Origin: Eubacteriales bacterium | GTDB taxonomy: Bacteria > Bacillota > Clostridia > Oscillospirales > CAG-272 | Assembly: GCA_045541375.1 (NCBI GenBank) | Contig: JAZQJB010000144.1 | Coordinates: 87,493-151,492 of the forward strand | Direction of reading: 5' to 3' | Length of the DNA stretch: 64,000 nucleotides | In this document: positions 7,274 through 64,000 of the stretch, in pieces | Layout: each line of letters begins with the position of its first letter | How positions within the stretch are numbered: position 1 is the first letter of the stretch | Position numbers and translations under genes: made by a program | Notes under the pieces: model-generated | What the model saw: the letters and a program-made list of their open reading frames with translations, nothing else | Told to the model about the DNA's origin: nothing | Databases searched by the model: none

Positions 7274-8065
7274 TCAAATCAAAGATATATATCTAAAAAG
7301 ATTGTATACGCTTATTCCGATAATTGCCACAAGCATACAGCAAAACAGAATGTCAACTGCTTTAGTGCTCATTTTCTTATTAATTTTTCTGCCGATGAAT
7401 CCGCCTGCGATACCCGAAACGATCATTACTGCGAGTGTTATGTAATCGGTTTCGGGTACAGATGATGAAGCGAAGGTGAATATCAAGCTTGCAGTCTGCG
7501 CGAAGAAAATCATATAAAGTGAATTGAGTGCAGCCGTCTTGGTGGTCATAGAGAAGAAGAAATACAATACTGCAAGATTAATCGGTCCTCCACCTATTCC
7601 AAGGAAAGAGGAGAGAATTCCGAGAAAAAAGCCGATCGAAAGGCAAACAACAGTTGATTTGATATTGTTTGTCTTTATGTGTTTCTTGTTCAGTACGTAA
7701 AGAAGCACTCCTCCTGTGAGAAGAATCATTATAACGCTCTGTGCAGTTCCGACTATTCCATCATTACCTGCGGCGTTTTTAATTATATCAAAAAGCAGTT
7801 TGCCAACCACTCCGCCTACTGCCGATCCTATTGCTAAAGGAGTGGTGCGCCCTTTATCGATTTTTGCATCTCCGCCTTTTGAAGACAACAGTGAAACAAT
7901 ACTCATCGCAAGAACGCTGCAACCGGAAAGAAAGCTGATTTGAGAAACAGAAATCACCGCAGTAGCATCAAGTACCGGCTTTATGATAACGCCACCACCG
8001 ATGCCTGAAATGGCGCCCAAAGTAGTTGCCAATAAGCAGATTAGTGAATAGAACAAATATTGCAT
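7274..8065 (-). CDS. TauE/SafE family sulfite/anion exporter-like membrane protein
   Basis: 263-aa polytopic membrane protein, Gly-rich, with the two internal repeats typical of TauE/SafE. RBS AAGGTG. Confidence 0.7.
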   Translation of the reverse strand: MQYLFYSLICLLATTLGAISGIGGGVIIKPVLDATAVISVSQISFLSGCSVLAMSIVSLLSSKGGDAKIDKGRTTPLAIGSAVGGVVGKLLFDIIKNAAGNDGIVGTAQSVIMILLTGGVLLYVLNKKHIKTNNIKSTVVCLSIGFFLGILSSFLGIGGGPINLAVLYFFFSMTTKTAALNSLYMIFFAQTASLIFTFASSSVPETDYITLAVMIVSGIAGGFIGRKINKKMSTKAVDILFCCMLVAIIGISVYNLFRYISLI

Positions 8066-8265: not shown

Positions 8266-8634
8266 TGGTGGAGGCGAGGGGAATCGAACCCCTGTCCGAA
8301 AACCAATCCTTACGGTTTTCTACGAGTGTAGTCGGTTATTTGCATTCCCATCATACGCCGAGAACCGACGCTCTGCGTAATCAAGTATCCTTTTTATGCG
8401 TGATCGCTTCAAAGGCTAAATGGCGATTCACGTTCATCGCTACATGACGCTCGCATCCCGGGTCGCGATAATCCCGGGCGGAACGGGCGGCTCCTCAGAG
8501 CCGCGTCACTGCCGTTTAGGCAGCAAATGCTACGTTATTGTTAGCGTTTAATGTTTAAGTTGAGCCGTTTAAGAGTTGCTCAGCTCTACTCGCTTACCGT
8601 ATCTCAAAATCCCCGTCGAAACCTTTACGCCCCC
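8266..8634 (-). ncRNA. ssrA: Transfer-messenger RNA (tmRNA, one-piece)
   Basis: On the minus strand the 5' end reads GGGGGCGTAAAGGTTTCGACGGGGATTTTGAGATACGG and the 3' end reads GGTTCGATTCCCCTCGCCTCCACCA. The internal tag reading frame GCT AAC AAT AAC GTA GCA TTT GCT GCC TAA (8516-8545) encodes ANNNVAFAA. The gene lies immediately downstream of smpB. Confidence 0.93.
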
Positions 8635-58457: not shown

Positions 58458-60113
58458 ATGAAAAATATTGATTTTAAGAAGATTTTGATAATTACTATAG
58501 GCATTATACTTCTGTTTGTTCCTACGTACATAGCTATTGCGAGTTATAACAGCCAAAAGCCTTCTGAAAATCTTCCAACAGTATCCACGTTAACCATTAA
58601 CGATCCCGAAGGAAGAACCCACACTGTTAAGTCTGATAATGATGAGAACGGTATCTTCGAAATGTTCAACCAGATCAATTCCAGCGGTACTCCGGTCTCT
58701 TCTCTTCCCGATTCGCTCGCTGGCAGCGGCTTTCTTCTTGTAACTTTCTCGACGCCCGATTCCGATCTTTCTTATAAGTACTATTTTACCACAAATTCTT
58801 CCGAATGCTATTATACCGATCCTACCGGCAAGATATATAAGATTGCCGTAAATCAGGCAAAAGCTTTCCTTGGCTCTTCTTATTCGGTATACCTTTATAA
58901 AACAGCCACACCGCCTGTTTTAACTGCTTCAGGAACTCATACTATTTCTGCATCATCGATGGAATGGTATTATCTTGTTTCGGGAGGAACTTATCAGCAA
59001 TTCGAATATACTCCCTCAAACAACGAAGACCTTACATATGACGTTGGAAACAATTTCACGTTCAGCTTCAGCATAGCTCCTTCCGATTCTAATCTTAAAG
59101 TTTTCAATTCTGATGAACTCCTGTATGACGGTGGAATCAATGATCTTCATGATCTGAAGCTTTCCCGAAACTCCACACTCAGATTTTTGATCACGGCAAG
59201 CTGGGCTCAGGCAAGTGAGACCGAATACTACGGAAGTGCCGAATATGAATTCAATGCACTTGTTCTTGCACCCGCTGAATTCAAGCTCGGCGAATCTGCA
59301 ATTGAGCATGGCGATATTGTAGCTCTTTCCGGTGTAAACGTAACAAATCCGGATGATATCAAGGTATCGTTCGAGCCTGCTCTCGATAACTCTTTCACTC
59401 CGAAATTCTATAAAGACGGTGAATATGTTCACGCTTTAATTCCCTTTAGCTATGATGTAGCAAACGGCGAATACAAGATAACGGTAACTTACGGTATTAC
59501 AACTCAAACTTTCGATCTTACTGTCGGGGAATCAAGATACGGATTCAACAAAGCTGCTACAAAATACGGTGCAAGTGAAGCTGTAATCTCAACCTTCTAT
59601 GCTGAAGAAGACATTGCCGCCTACAATAAGGTCAGATCCGAGATCTGCAGTTCCTCCGAAGAATTGAAATATTTTTCCGGGGCTTTCATTAATTATGAAA
59701 CTGCAGGAACTCTTACATCCAAAAAATCAACAATTAAACTGGGATTCACAAGAGAAAATATTCTTAAGGATGGCAGAACATTTAAACACACGGGAATTGA
59801 TTTTGAGGCTACAGCAGGAATTGATGTTCCGGCGATGTCCAGCGGAAAAGTTGTTTATGCAGGATTCTGCGACGTGCTTGGCAATTTTGTAGTTGTTGAT
59901 CACGGATACGGACTCAAGACCTGGTATGCACATCTCAGCGAGATTTCAGTTTCTGTCGGTGATGTTGTCAGAACTTCTCAGAGTCTTGGAAAGACCGGAA
60001 ATACCGGATTTATCATTGACAATAGATTACACATAGAATTTACTCTCGGAAATATTTCCATCGCCCCCTTTTCAATTTGGGACGAAGGTATTATCCTTTC
60101 CTCTTTTAACTGA
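58458..60113 (+). CDS. Membrane-anchored M23 (LytM) family metallopeptidase
   Basis: N-terminal TM helix. The C-terminal LytM core reads HTGIDFEA ... VVVDHGYGLKTWYAHLSEI ... LHIEF. Confidence 0.88.
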   Translation: MKNIDFKKILIITIGIILLFVPTYIAIASYNSQKPSENLPTVSTLTINDPEGRTHTVKSDNDENGIFEMFNQINSSGTPVSSLPDSLAGSGFLLVTFSTPDSDLSYKYYFTTNSSECYYTDPTGKIYKIAVNQAKAFLGSSYSVYLYKTATPPVLTASGTHTISASSMEWYYLVSGGTYQQFEYTPSNNEDLTYDVGNNFTFSFSIAPSDSNLKVFNSDELLYDGGINDLHDLKLSRNSTLRFLITASWAQASETEYYGSAEYEFNALVLAPAEFKLGESAIEHGDIVALSGVNVTNPDDIKVSFEPALDNSFTPKFYKDGEYVHALIPFSYDVANGEYKITVTYGITTQTFDLTVGESRYGFNKAATKYGASEAVISTFYAEEDIAAYNKVRSEICSSSEELKYFSGAFINYETAGTLTSKKSTIKLGFTRENILKDGRTFKHTGIDFEATAGIDVPAMSSGKVVYAGFCDVLGNFVVVDHGYGLKTWYAHLSEISVSVGDVVRTSQSLGKTGNTGFIIDNRLHIEFTLGNISIAPFSIWDEGIILSSFN

Positions 60114-60120
60114 GTATTAA

Positions 60121-60160
60121 AATGCAGGTTTCTCGGATTTTTCGAGAAGCCTGCATTTTT
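60121..60160 (+). terminator. Intrinsic terminator after the M23 peptidase gene
   Basis: 15-bp stem AATGCAGGTTTCTCG / CGAGAAGCCTGCATT, followed by TTTTT. Confidence 0.85.
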
Positions 60161-60246
60161 ACTATTAAACATTTGCTGACTAGTGAGTCTGAATAGAATA
60201 CTGTTATATAATTCTACACAGGCTAATATAGCTTACAAATGAAATT

Positions 60247-60264
60247 TTGTGAACTATTTGTGAA
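60247..60264 (+). repeat. Tandem direct repeat TTGTGAA x2 with 11-bp periodicity, just upstream of the -35 element (candidate operator)
   Basis: TTGTGAA at 60247-60253 and at 60258-60264. The extended form is TTTGTGAAnT. Confidence 0.35.
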
Positions 60265-60279
60265 TTGTAGAAAAACTTC

Positions 60280-60308
60280 TTGACAACTTAATAAATTTGT
60301 GATATTAT
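60280..60308 (+). promoter_or_regulatory. Sigma-A promoter of the T-box operon
   Basis: TTGACA (60280-60285), 17-nt spacer, TGA-TATTAT (-10 at 60303-60308). Confidence 0.65.
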
Positions 60309-60329
60309 TTATTTATATTTTTAATAAAA

Positions 60330-60586
60330 GGCATTGATAGGGATGTCATGATATAAGTTTGTTGCAGAGAGCCGTCATATTGGTGAAAGACGGTACAAAA
60401 TGTATCACGTTCGTCGCCCTGGAGCCGAGGAAAAGAAAGTTGAATATACAACCGTAGAATTCCTCCGTATTGCTGCGTTAAAGCATAAATTAAGCGGCGC
60501 GTGTGCGCAATTTGAGTGGTACCGCGGGTATTGAATTTTGGTTCAGCTCGTCTCAAGAAGTTTTCTTGGGGCGAGCTTGCTTTTTT
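60330..60586 (+). promoter_or_regulatory. T-box riboswitch leader (tRNA-responsive transcription attenuator)
   Basis: AGAGAG bulge (60366-71), distal hairpin with TGGTGAAA loop, stem II GAGGAA/TTCCTC, F-box GCGTTA (60475-80), stem III GCGC-GTGT-GCGC, T-box core AATTTGAGTGGTACCGCG (60509-26), and a 15-bp terminator (60545-77) followed by TGCTTTTTT. Confidence 0.85.
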
Positions 60587-60596
60587 AGGAGGTACA

Positions 60597-62878
60597 ATGA
60601 ATAACATTTTTGAAATTGATAAGCAAATAAAAGCAATGGCAGGCAGAATTGCCGCTTTGCGAGAGATCGAGGGGTACTCAGCCGAATATATGGCAGAGCA
60701 AACAGGTATTTCTGTCGCAGAATATCTCGATTGCGAAGCCGGTCGGGCTGATCTAACATTCGCATTTCTGTTCAGATGCGCATCTGCTCTGGGGATCGAC
60801 GTAACCGAAATTATAGAAGGTACGGCGCCCAGACTGAAATCATACACTTTGACACGAAAAGGCCGTGGTCAGCGTATAGAGCAGGCGCACGGAATGACTT
60901 ATTACAATATCGCTCATTCCTTTGCAAACAGAACTTCGAACCCACTATACGTTCACTGTGAGTATTCGGAAAAGGCCGAGTCTTCTCCTATTGCAGTAAC
61001 GACACACGCAGGTCAGGAATGTGATATCGTAATCAAAGGTCGGCTAAAGGTTCAGGTAGGTGAACACACCGAAATTCTTGAGGAAGGCGACAGTATTTAC
61101 TACGACAGCTCAACACCTCACGGTATGATAGCTATCGGAGGCGAAGATTGCTACTTTTACGCCATCGTTCTCCTCCCAGATGGGAATCAGGATGAAAACA
61201 AGATCGTCACACTTGAAGCTACACCCGCCAAAAAGCGCGACACAGAAACACGTGTTTACAGCAAATTCATTACTACCGAAGAAAACGAAAACGGTGCTCC
61301 GATTTCGATTAACTTCAAGGGTGAAAACAGCTTTAACTTCGCCTATGATATCGTTGATACGCTTGGAAGATCCAAACCTGATAAACTAGCCATCATGCAC
61401 GTTGCAGATGACGGTGCAGAGTCCAGAATTACATTCTCACAAGTAAAACGTGCTTCAGCACAGTGTGCGAACTATTTTAAGTCCCTTGGCATCAAACGAG
61501 GCGACAAGGTAATGCTCGTTTTGAAGAGAAGATACCAGTTCTGGTATGCAATGATCGGTCTTCATAAACTCGGCGCTGTAGCTATTCCTGCAACAAACCA
61601 GCTAAAGGAACACGATTACGAATACAGATTCAATACAGCAGGCGTTAAAGCTATCATCTGCGTTGATGACGACTATGTCATCGAGCAAGCCGAGGCTGCA
61701 CTTGCAAAATGCCCCGACGTCAGCATCAAGCTGCTTGTCGGAAGCGAACGCGAGGGTTGGAGAAACTTTAACGAAGAGTACACATTGTTCAGCAGTCATT
61801 TTGAGAGAACCGATGATTCTCCTTGCGGCGATGATCCGATGCTGATGTACTTTACTTCCGGCACCTCAGGTTATCCCAAGATTGCCCTTCACAACTATAA
61901 GTATCCTCTCGGTCATTTCATACAGCGAAGTATTGGCATTGTGTCAACCCCGACGGATTACATCTTACCATTTCCGATACCGGATGGGCTAAAGCAATGT
62001 GGGGCAAGCTTTATGGAGCATGGCTTTGCGAAGCAGCGATATTTGTTTATGACTTTGACAGATTTGATGCATCGAAGATACTTCCTCTATTCCGTAAGTA
62101 TAATATTACAACATTCTGTGCGCCTCCCACGATGTATAGAATGATCATCAAAGAAGATCTTTCGAAATACGACCTCAGCTCGATCGAGCACGCAACTATT
62201 GCGGGCGAAGCTCTCAATCCTGAGGTATTCCGTCAGTTTGAAAAGCAGACGGGACTCAAGATCATGGAAGGTTTCGGACAGAGCGAAACCACATTGGTTA
62301 TCGGTAATCTTGTTGGCAAGTCTCATAAGATCGGATCAATGGGTAAACCCGTACCGATTTATAACGTTGATCTTGTTGATCCCGATGGCAACAGCGTCGG
62401 AATCGGTGATCCCGGTGAGATAGTCATTCATACTGAAAACGGAGCGCCTTGCGGTCTGTTCTGCGAATACTATAACACTCCCGAAAAAACCGCAGAGGTT
62501 TGGCACGACGGTGTATATCACACCGGTGACCTTGCTTGGCGCGACGAGGACGGATTCTTCTGGTATGTCGGACGAGCTGACGACGTTATTAAATCTTCCG
62601 GATACCGAATCGGTCCGTTTGAGATTGAAAGCGTTATTATGGAGCTTCCTTACGTTCTTGAATGCGGTGTTTCCGCTGCTCCCGATGAGATCAGAGGACA
62701 GATAGTCAAGGCAAGTATCGTTCTTACAAAGGGTACCGAGCCTACCGAAGAACTCAAGAAAGATATTCAGAATTACGTCAAGAAGCGCACTGCACCTTAC
62801 AAGTACCCCAGACTTGTAGAATTCAAGTCTGAACTTCCCAAGACTACAAGCGGCAAAATAATCCGCAGCAAACTCTAA
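60597..62878 (+). pseudogene. PuuR-like HTH(XRE)-cupin domain fused to an AMP-forming (ACSM/MACS-like) acyl-CoA synthetase, interrupted by a 1-nt frameshift near 61916-61922
   Basis: Starts at the ATG at 60597 with RBS AGGAGG. Residues 1-70 are an XRE HTH, about 95-190 a cupin, and from about 236 an AMP-binding domain (YFTSGTSGYPK). Frame A carries ...YKYPLGHF, and the -1 frame continues with HTAKYWHCVNPDGLHLTISDTGWAKAMWGKLYG... to the stop at 62878. One extra T in the TTT run restores a 760-aa ORF. Confidence 0.8.
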
Positions 62879-62880
62879 TC

Positions 62881-63555
62881 ATGAAAAACAAACGATTAAC
62901 CCTTTTCGCAGGGCATTACGGTAGCGGAAAGACCAACGTAGCTTTGAATTACGCATTTCTATTAAAAACAGCCGGGCACGATACCGTTATTGCTGATATA
63001 GACACTGTTAACCCATATTTCAGAACCAAAGATAGTGCCAAAGAGCTTGAAGAAGCCGGCATAGAACTGATTGCATCAGAATTCGCAGGCTCCAACGTTG
63101 ACCTTCCTGCGCTTCCTGCTGCAATGTACGATATCATATTTGAGTCAAATAAATATGCAGTTATCGACATTGGCGGCGATGATCGCGGAGCGTTTGCACT
63201 TGGTCGATATACACCGGAAATTCTGAGAGAAAACAATTACAGCATGCTGATGGTCATAAATATGTATCGACCGTTAACGTCAACACCTGAAGATACGGTA
63301 GAGATTTTAAAAGAGATCGAATCAGCATCAGGTATTCCCTTCACCGGGCTTGTTAACAATTCAAATCTTGGTATTGCAACCACTCCCAAAACTCTTGAAT
63401 CTTCTTTTTCTTACGCGAAAGAAGTATCAAAGCTTTCAGGATTGCCGATTGTTGCAACAAGTTGCCCTGATACAAGCGAATTCTATAACATCACTACTTT
63501 TGGTGATGAAAATGGTGATTTAATTAAACTTAAACTCCAAAATAAAATAGTATAA
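62881..63555 (+). CDS. P-loop NTPase (MinD/CooC-like SIMIBI-type ATP-binding protein), function unknown
   Basis: 224 aa with Walker A GHYGSGKT and a Walker-B-like VIDIGGDD. It starts 2 nt after the ligase stop. Confidence 0.65.
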   Translation: MKNKRLTLFAGHYGSGKTNVALNYAFLLKTAGHDTVIADIDTVNPYFRTKDSAKELEEAGIELIASEFAGSNVDLPALPAAMYDIIFESNKYAVIDIGGDDRGAFALGRYTPEILRENNYSMLMVINMYRPLTSTPEDTVEILKEIESASGIPFTGLVNNSNLGIATTPKTLESSFSYAKEVSKLSGLPIVATSCPDTSEFYNITTFGDENGDLIKLKLQNKIV

Positions 63556-63566
63556 GGAGAAAACAA

Positions 63567-63773
63567 ATGGCTAAATTAACGTTTAATATTGAAAAATGCA
63601 AGGGATGCGGACTTTGTGTATCTGCGTGCCCCAAGCACCTTTTGATAGTTTCCAAATCAAAAATCAATCAAAAAGGACATTACGTTGCAGAAATTACCGA
63701 TATGGATTCCTGCATCGGTTGCGCATTCTGTGCAACAATGTGTCCCGACTGCATAATCAAGGTAGAAAAATAA
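63567..63773 (+). CDS. 2-oxoacid:ferredoxin oxidoreductase delta subunit (2x[4Fe-4S] ferredoxin)
   Basis: 68 aa with two cluster motifs, [12 protein letters not shown] and [21 protein letters not shown]. Confidence 0.85.
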
Positions 63774-63786
63774 GGAGGAAGTAATT

Positions 63787-64000
63787 ATGGCTGATAAAGT
63801 TTTAATGAAAGGTAACGAAGCCATCGCCGAAGCGGCAATAATGGCGGGTTGCAGACACTATTTCGGATATCCAATCACCCCTCAGACTGAAATTGCCGCA
63901 TATATGGCAAAAAGAATGCCCAAGATCGGCGGTACTTTCCTTCAGGCAGAAAGCGAAGTTGCTGCTATTAATATGGTAATCGGTGTTGCTTCTGCCGGAA
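63787..64000 (+). CDS. 2-oxoacid:ferredoxin oxidoreductase alpha subunit (KorA/VorB type), 3'-truncated by the window edge
   Basis: My own translation is [81 protein letters not shown]. It is absent from the ORF track because no stop falls inside the window. Confidence 0.85.

Follow-up and report, generated by a model that had tools for sequence, protein, structure and literature searches.

A T-box leader with a predicted valine specifier ahead of an acid:CoA ligase and oxidoreductase operon in the Oscillospirales

We describe a T-box leader, an RNA element of the tRNA-sensing type, and the operon that it precedes in a Eubacteriales bacterium (GTDB lineage Bacteria; Bacillota; Clostridia; Oscillospirales; CAG-272). 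The window is the whole stretch of DNA that was analysed, 64,000 nucleotides (nt) long, from positions 87,493 to 151,492 of contig JAZQJB010000144.1 (assembly GCA_045541375.1), and all coordinates below count from its first letter. The leader lies near the end of the window and is followed by a gene for a regulator-ligase fusion, a P-loop protein, a ferredoxin and the beginning of a 2-oxoacid:ferredoxin oxidoreductase. We think it probable that this leader is a valine-specific, transcription-attenuating T-box, and that the seven genes under its control form an operon by which isobutyrate from outside the cell is made into valine. The proposal builds on the architecture of the RNA, its conservation and covariation, the register of its specifier, and the content of the operon, all of which we observe directly.

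The leader and the genes behind it

The promoter and the leader comprise the following features, which are read from the Rfam alignment unless another source is given.

60280-60308 (+): sigma-70-type promoter, with -35 box TTGACA at 60280-85, a 17-nt spacer and a TG-extended -10 box TATTAT at 60303-08 (11 of 12 matches, TG present)
60325-60586 (+): T-box leader RNA, from the start of the Rfam match to the end of the terminator U-run; the sequence is identical in the conspecific contig L085
60331-60425 (+): stem I (also covariation in 52 orthologues)
60331-32 and 60424-25 (+): closing pairs of stem I, GC/GC
60333-38 and 60421-23 (+): kink-turn (K-turn) strands AUUGAU/GGA, with the GA motif formed by UGA 60335-37 and GGA
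60339-42 and 60417-20 (+): basal helix AGGG/CCCU
60349-53 and 60403-07 (+): stem I helix UGAUA/UAUCA
60366-71 (+): AG bulge AGAGAG
60372-76 and 60389-93 (+): distal hairpin CCGUC/GACGG, with loop AUAUUGGUGAAA at 60377-88
60413-15 (+): specifier codon GUC (Val), followed by the purine G60416 and lying directly 5' of the basal helix strand CCCU 60417-20 (Rfam register)
60427-32 and 60460-65 (+): stem II GAGGAA/UUCCUC, with an internal GAAA...GUAGAA motif (GUAGAA at 60454-59)
60466-60480 (+): stem IIA/B region, with F-box GCGUUA at 60475-80
60497-500 and 60505-08 (+): stem III GCGC/GCGC, loop GUGU (alignment and sequence reading)
60509-60526 (+): T-box core AAUUUGAGUGGUACCGCG, with the UGGU bulge at 60517-20
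60513-60555 (+): antiterminator, pairing UGAG 60513-16 with CUCA 60552-55 and GCGGG 60524-28 with CUCGU 60547-51 around the 7-nt bulge UGGUACC (Rfam structure line)
60545-60586 (+): intrinsic terminator, a 15-bp hairpin at 60545-77 with loop GUU and a U-run at 60581-86 (terminator scan and fold)

In a local Rfam scan with an E-value threshold, the T-box model RF00230 matches the forward strand of the window from 60325 to 60558, over its full length (model positions 1-219 of 219), at 92.6 bits (E 5.2e-21). The significant, full-length alignment bears out the initial annotation, which had recognised a complete T-box here with all of its hallmarks; the 15-bp terminator with its U-tract, and the alternative between terminator and antiterminator, are likewise recovered by a terminator scan and by the Rfam structure line. 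By its sequence, then, the region 60325-60586 is confirmed as a complete, transcriptional T-box leader of the tRNA-sensing type and as an ordinary member of its family. Because the antiterminator uses bases of the terminator's 5' arm (its 3' strand, 60547-55, sits within 60545-59), the two structures are mutually exclusive. The hairpin at 60545-77 with its T-run is the sole terminator-like site that the scan finds in the region, and in the minimum-free-energy fold of the leader both the terminator and the distal hairpin are visible.

The order of elements is that of well-known members of the family, such as the leaders of Bacillus subtilis tyrS and of its ilv-leu operon: K-turn, specifier loop, AG bulge and distal loop, stem II, F-box, stem III, and a 14-nt core with a UGGN bulge. 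The window's leader also shares with them the exclusive choice between antiterminator and terminator, and a specifier that would match the amino acid supplied by the downstream genes. It differs from them in its atypical S-turn sequences, in a score just under the family's gathering cut-off, and in the genes under its control, which are neither an aminoacyl-tRNA synthetase, nor a standard biosynthetic operon, nor a transporter.

The curated gathering score of RF00230 is 93 bits, 0.4 bit above that of the window's leader, which is therefore missed by a whole-window scan at the gathering threshold; such a scan lists a transfer-messenger RNA (tmRNA) only. This behaviour is common among the relatives. 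Six of the eight T-boxes that were scored with Rfam 15 (that of the window and those of related loci, including L001, L004, L006 and L014) fall below 93 bits, at 73-92.6 bits with E-values from 1e-13 to 1e-21. The seven related leaders match the full model at 73-100 bits, five of them under the cut-off at 73-91 bits. Thus, pipelines tied to the Rfam gathering cut-off would overlook most such leaders.

For comparison we used 80 loci from metagenome-assembled genomes of gut and rumen Clostridia (Oscillospiraceae, Acutalibacteraceae, Christensenellaceae, Eubacteriales). The core TGGTACCGCG occurs about 75-165 nt before the ligase start in 68 of these loci, and in the window; nine further leaders came from loci whose match start was offset and from L083, a contig of the same genus. 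Covariation was counted on those helices that could be aligned by anchors. In 52 orthologous leaders, 96.9% of the cells in the anchored helices of stem I are paired; sliding the partner column lowers this share to 31-48%. Compensatory changes are seen in 10 of the 11 pairs of these helices. The basal helix is paired in 100% of cases, with compensatory changes at four of its four pairs, and the distal hairpin in 93%, with such changes at five of five. RNAalifold, applied to a MAFFT alignment, recovers the distal hairpin alone, because the middle helices of stem I cannot be aligned by sequence. At the 3' end, a hairpin and T-run with the complement of the core UUGAG in its 5' arm are found in 67 of 77 orthologous leaders. 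At the 5' end, all of the 56 orthologous leaders whose upstream region was parsed have, at the equivalent site, a perfect TTGACA, a spacer of 17 or 18 nt and TAnnnT, and the consensus of these promoters reads A-tract, TTGACA, TGTGnTAtaaT.

Behind the terminator, the window holds the following genes.

60588-60599 (+): ribosome-binding site AGGAGG (60588-93) and ATG start (60597), by sequence reading; intact homologues of 760 amino acids (aa) start here
60597-62878 (+): gene 1, a fusion of HTH_3, Cupin_2 and an AMP-forming acyl-coenzyme A (acyl-CoA) ligase (Pfam; 760 aa after in-silico repair of a frameshift)
62881-63555 (+): gene 2, a SIMIBI-class P-loop nucleoside triphosphatase (NTPase) of 224 aa, with Walker A motif GHYGSGKT and a single Cys
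63567-63773 (+): gene 3, a 2x[4Fe-4S] ferredoxin of the delta-subunit type, 68 aa (Pfam Fer4 families)
63787-64000 (+): gene 4, the 5' end (first 71 aa) of a 2-oxoacid:ferredoxin oxidoreductase alpha subunit (POR_N), cut by the end of the window

Intact homologues of the repaired gene 1 protein, about 760 aa long, number in the thousands, and the ATG at 60597 behind AGGAGG is most likely the true start of the ligase. The longest ligase open reading frame (ORF) opens at a GTG at 60516, within the T-box core and terminator, and two public protein calls of 787 aa (P0001, P0002) take that start; with some gene callers the ligase thus begins 27 codons further 5', inside the T-box. The nearest characterised relatives of the ligase are MacsMa of Methanosarcina acetivorans (PDB 3ETC) and MbcS of Staphylococcus aureus, short branched-chain acyl-CoA synthetases that both prefer small branched acids; the preferred substrate of MacsMa is 2-methylbutyrate. 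The ligase domain (residues ~218-758) has 3ETC as its best PDB match (E 3e-192), and its best NCBIfam match is MbcS, at 438 bits with an equivalog cut-off of 850. The YHTGD form of motif III (PMC10455477) is present in the window's ligase as well, whereas the N-terminal module of about 215 aa, an XRE-type helix-turn-helix (HTH) and a cupin, is absent from MacsMa and MbcS.

Almost every locus conserves the P-loop protein between ligase and ferredoxin. Searches of NCBIfam and of PDB sequences give no match for it, and Pfam gives none above cut-off. Its structural model has a mean predicted local distance difference test score of 83, and the nearest folds, at template-modelling scores of 0.5-0.6, are signal recognition particle GTPases, ATPase-type HypB and Mrp-like proteins. 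The model suggests a generic SIMIBI-class NTPase fold with no assigned family, and the protein may help to mature the oxidoreductase or assist it in some other way.

The remainder of the operon can be read from relatives. In L083 and L084, which are syntenic and of the same genus, it goes on with genes for the three subunits alpha, beta and gamma, its last gene being that of a class-IV aminotransferase (Aminotran_4); the DNA of L083 is 87% identical to the window, while at the protein level its ligase and the repaired one are 98% identical. In L001 (94% identity) the order is ligase, P-loop protein, ferredoxin, VorB, beta, gamma and IlvE, and most of the 80 loci share it. The alpha subunit of L001 scores 544.7 bits against the VorB model NF005507 (cut-off 399), its partners are TPP_enzyme_C, POR and Fer4 neighbours, and its aminotransferase, whose counterpart would lie beyond the end of the window, scores 477 bits against the IlvE model NF009897 (cut-off 307). 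These are the same four parts that make up 2-ketoisovalerate:ferredoxin oxidoreductase (VOR; VorABCD) of archaea and anaerobic bacteria, namely a delta-type ferredoxin, alpha (POR_N and PFOR_II), beta (TPP_enzyme_C) and gamma (POR). The enzyme of this operon differs in that we propose it to work reductively, in that a conserved SIMIBI NTPase precedes it, and in that it stands under a T-box.

The specifier codon and its tRNA

In a T-box, the canonical specifier slot consists of three bases followed by a purine and then by the basal helix. Since the basal helix is fully paired and covaries at all four of its pairs, the register of the specifier is fixed, and in the window the slot is occupied by GUC. 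To tally this slot, we parsed 77 orthologous leaders from fixed anchors and counted with a regular expression, checking the result by eye. The slot reads GUA (Val) in 69 leaders, GUC (Val) in six, GUG (Val) in one and CUG (Leu) in one, the last being L014, and the following base is G in 62 leaders and A in 15. Variation is restricted to the wobble base within one codon family, as expected of a specifier. The variable base of the UGGN bulge, which the initial annotation had placed at U60520, is read there in the T-box core, and UGGU is found in all of 136 T-box cores across loci; as that annotation held, the sequence predicts a tRNA with discriminator A73. A73 is the usual discriminator of bacterial tRNA-Val. 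Because the slot is GUN in 76 of 77 orthologues, with only the wobble base varying, and because UGGU is invariant, we read the window's leader as a valine T-box.

This settles on what the initial annotation had listed as its third option, GUC at 60413-15. Its first choice, AUC (Ile) at 60404-06, does not hold, since these bases lie in a stem I helix and are not conserved; we agree with it that CAC (His) is not the specifier.

A proposed route from isobutyrate to valine, and its alternatives

In the mechanism that we propose, transcription would start at the strong sigma-70 promoter (60280-60308), and the leader would fold such that stem I offers GUC 60413-15 to the anticodon of tRNA-Val. When that tRNA is uncharged, its free ACCA 3' end would pair with UGGU 60517-20 and so stabilise the antiterminator (60513-55), allowing RNA polymerase to read through; when it is charged, the 15-bp terminator (60545-77) and U-run would form, and transcription would stop before the ATG at 60597. 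Read-through would express an AMP-forming branched short-chain acid:CoA ligase that turns isobutyrate into isobutyryl-CoA, and a VorB-type VOR that, by reductive carboxylation, would convert isobutyryl-CoA, CO2 and reduced ferredoxin into 2-ketoisovalerate. The ferredoxin and the SIMIBI NTPase would be expressed along with them, and IlvE, encoded beyond the end of the window, would convert 2-ketoisovalerate into valine.

We favour synthesis over degradation because an AMP-forming, ATP-consuming ligase works in the activating direction, because it is joined with a reversible VOR that has its own ferredoxin and with IlvE, and because all of these stand under a switch predicted to be on when tRNA-Val is uncharged. 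The initial annotation had called the target of this T-box non-canonical. That description stands insofar as we did not find these enzymes described as T-box targets; it does not stand for the logic of the operon, which ends, beyond base 64000, with IlvE, and which therefore fits the ordinary use of T-boxes in amino-acid supply, albeit by an unusual route.

The predicted chemistry has a precedent. The conversions of isobutyrate to valine, of 2-methylbutyrate to isoleucine and of isovalerate to leucine are given as established in rumen anaerobes by the papers cited in PMC7356843 (Allison & Peel 1971; Robinson & Allison 1969; Allison 1966). As cited there, the route from isobutyrate to valine (Allison & Peel 1971) consists of the same steps: activation of the acid, ferredoxin-dependent carboxylation to the 2-oxoacid, and transamination. 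The relatives that carry the operon are themselves gut and rumen Clostridia. The classical work was physiological and isotopic and concerned organisms outside this clade (Megasphaera, Prevotella), whereas the present case offers a candidate set of genes and a regulator.

These three conversions of isoacids into amino acids underlie the need of fibre-degrading rumen bacteria for isoacids, as well as the cross-feeding of branched acids in the gut. The operon offers candidate genes and a regulator for a pathway known only biochemically since about 1970, and a T-box with a valine specifier before ligase, VOR and IlvE amounts to a direct, testable gene assignment. In the literature searched, including the RegPrecise tables of T-box regulons, neither VOR nor a branched-acid ligase is linked to a T-box, which does not disprove prior art, and in the same literature we found no description of the genes, or of the control, of isoacid-to-amino-acid conversion in these Clostridia. 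The assignment of the regulon thus appears to be new, while the RNA itself is routine.

Several observations weigh against the proposal. The leader's RF00230 score falls short of the curated gathering score, if only by 0.4 bit, and in the Rfam alignment its specifier-loop S-turn sequences differ from the textbook AGUA/GAA. There is no tRNA-Val gene in the window (which has a tmRNA only) or in 60 related loci, so that neither the anticodon nor A73 can be read there. The ligase lies far below the MbcS equivalog cut-off (438 against 850 bits), and its substrate is thus only predicted. About 13 of 80 species have only the ligase under the T-box, an arrangement that also fits the supply of acyl-CoA primers. 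The ligase gene of the window is frameshifted and, if the frameshift is real, the first step would be inactive in this strain. Finally, that tRNA binds, that read-through follows, which acid the ligase uses and which way the oxidoreductase runs are all inferred rather than observed.

The frameshift raises the possibility of an intact leader over a decaying operon, that is, of a strain that has lost the step activating isobutyrate, which would be compatible with our explanation for the species as a whole. One C is missing at about 61919 (61916-61920), where the window reads GGTCATTT-CATACA and the conspecific L085 reads GGTCATTTCCATACA; the deletion is located by comparison with L083 too, and it splits the ligase gene into ORFs at 60516-62144 and 61997-62878. 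Four other pairs of overlapping ORFs in the window, which were suspected of being further frameshifts, proved to be ordinary separate neighbouring genes, so that the assembly is not generally ridden with indels. Yet the loss of a single base beside a T-run is a typical error of sequencing or assembly. The ligase is intact in L085, whose DNA is 98.6% identical over 8 kb and whose T-box is identical, as it is in every homologue at 98-99% identity; in the window itself the T-box, the promoter and the genes downstream are intact, and identical or nearly identical to those of strains with an intact ligase. We therefore consider a real loss of function in this strain possible but rather doubtful.

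Alternatively, the ligase might scavenge isobutyrate when valine is scarce in order to supply branched acyl-CoA primers for the branched-chain fatty acids of the membrane, as MbcS does in Staphylococcus aureus. MbcS is, after all, the best NCBIfam match of the ligase, and in the accounts given in PMC10026030 and PMC11167679 it supports branched-chain fatty-acid synthesis from carboxylic acids. This explanation may apply to the roughly 13 of 80 species in which the T-box precedes the ligase alone, and IlvE and VOR, if run oxidatively, would likewise arrive at isobutyryl-CoA. In most species, however, the ligase is co-transcribed with VorB, beta, gamma and IlvE, and to induce a valine-consuming combination of IlvE and VOR upon uncharging of tRNA-Val would deepen the very shortage that is sensed. 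A companion leucine T-box on a LeuA-like biosynthetic gene, described below, also suggests that what unites the cluster is amino-acid supply. Primer supply is thus less consistent than valine synthesis with a switch for valine starvation and with the co-transcription of IlvE and VOR, and we regard it as unlikely.

A catabolic operon, in which IlvE and an oxidative VOR would lead from valine through 2-ketoisovalerate to isobutyryl-CoA, with the T-box incidental or serving another purpose, is much less probable still. The 2-oxoacid:ferredoxin oxidoreductases are reversible, VOR is usually described in the oxidative direction, and the NCBIfam name of VorB is '3-methyl-2-oxobutanoate dehydrogenase subunit'. 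But a switch that is on when tRNA-Val is uncharged is the reverse of what catabolism needs, and the link between T-box and ligase is kept across 77 leaders. Moreover, an AMP-forming ligase spends ATP, whereas an energy-conserving catabolic route would use an ADP-forming synthetase, or a phosphotransacylase and kinase, none of which is found in the operon.

Lastly, an isoleucine-specific T-box, with AUC 60404-06 as specifier and an operon that answers to uncharged tRNA-Ile, is almost certainly not what the leader represents: although AUC followed by A is present at 60404-07, tRNA-Ile also carries A73 (and is hence compatible with UGGU) and isoleucine T-boxes exist at neighbouring units in relatives, the triplet lies seven bases upstream of the slot, within the 3' strand UAUCA that pairs with UGAUA 60349-53, it is AUU in L083 with a compensating change on the opposite strand and is replaced by unrelated sequences elsewhere, the covarying and fully paired basal helix sets a register that puts GUN into the slot of 76 of 77 orthologues, and the isoleucine T-boxes of relatives carry AUC in the canonical slot itself, ahead of a different paralogue.

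Paralogous units and neighbouring features

In most loci, a paralogous HTH-cupin-ligase gene stands just upstream of the focal unit, with its own promoter and its own T-box. The slot of that T-box reads AUC (Ile) in 46 of 49 cases. A third T-box, with CUC or CUG (Leu), is found downstream or divergently, ahead of a LeuA-like gene (HMGL-like and LeuA_dimer domains, ~465 aa). The positions of these elements, in the coordinates of their own loci, are as follows.

L001 5047-5276, L006 5089-5335, L004 605-852 and about 46 other loci: Ile-type T-boxes, on the upstream paralogue
L008 ~14965, L013 ~9996, L015 ~10044, L017 ~14941, L064 ~14979, L065 ~7754 and L045 627-4479 (-): Leu-type T-box units

The Val-linked and Ile-linked ligases form distinct orthologous groups, with 74% and 72.5% identity within the groups and 65% between them. 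Isoleucine and leucine specifiers on paralogous units lend independent support to the conversion of isobutyrate to valine as the function of the focal operon, and the three kinds of specifier together constitute a built-in prediction of the substrate of each ligase. A broader scheme may be drawn from this, which we offer tentatively and hold to be somewhat less probable than not: a three-channel, tRNA-gated salvage of isoacids in gut and rumen Clostridia. Under this scheme there would be three T-boxes with separate promoters: an Ile T-box (AUC) for a ligase of the 2-methylbutyrate type, a Val T-box (GUN) for a ligase of the isobutyrate type together with a shared VOR and IlvE, and a Leu T-box (CUC/CUG) for a LeuA-like gene and a third ligase fusion. 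The ligase paralogues, otherwise indistinguishable, would each have their substrate labelled by the specifier; the HTH-cupin module would provide a second, substrate-sensing control; and a VOR working reductively would have a new accessory factor in the SIMIBI NTPase.

The upstream isoleucine unit is absent from this locus in the window's species and in L002 and L003; in the window, a gene for an M23 peptidase with its own likely terminator hairpin takes its place. In the Ile-type leaders the base after the codon is C instead of the usual purine in 19 of 48. The gene after the LeuA-like one encodes a fusion protein of 827 aa, in which a xylose-isomerase-like TIM barrel (AP_endonuc_2) is joined to an AMP-forming ligase.

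L014 is the sole locus whose leader in the focal position (7678-7940) has a leucine specifier (CUG G UUUU CGAGC), and there the LeuA-like gene comes directly after ilvE, in the same string of genes. Because the ligase of L014 nests in the Val-linked group, its sequence suggests a secondary switch of the specifier.

Just 5' of the -35 box in the window, within 60245-60270, there is a direct repeat of TTGTGAA (60247-53 and 60258-64). L001, L002 and L083 keep it in a partly palindromic form (TGAACAATT...AATTGTTCA), and it may be the operator on which the ligase's HTH-cupin module acts. Clade-wide, we find no conserved operator motif for the HTH domain beyond the promoter, the TTGTGAA repeat being limited to the closest relatives.

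Further upstream, the promoter is preceded by the M23 peptidase gene (stop at 60113), right after which, at 60123-60160, stands a 13-bp hairpin (TGCAGGTTTCTCG / CGAGAAGCCTGCA) followed by TTTTT. This hairpin does not appear in the list produced by the pattern scan; it is likely a terminator that insulates the promoter of the T-box. The tmRNA gene of the window lies far from the operon, at 8266-8634 on the reverse strand (163 bits in Rfam), and ARAGORN reads its tag peptide as ANNNVAFAA.

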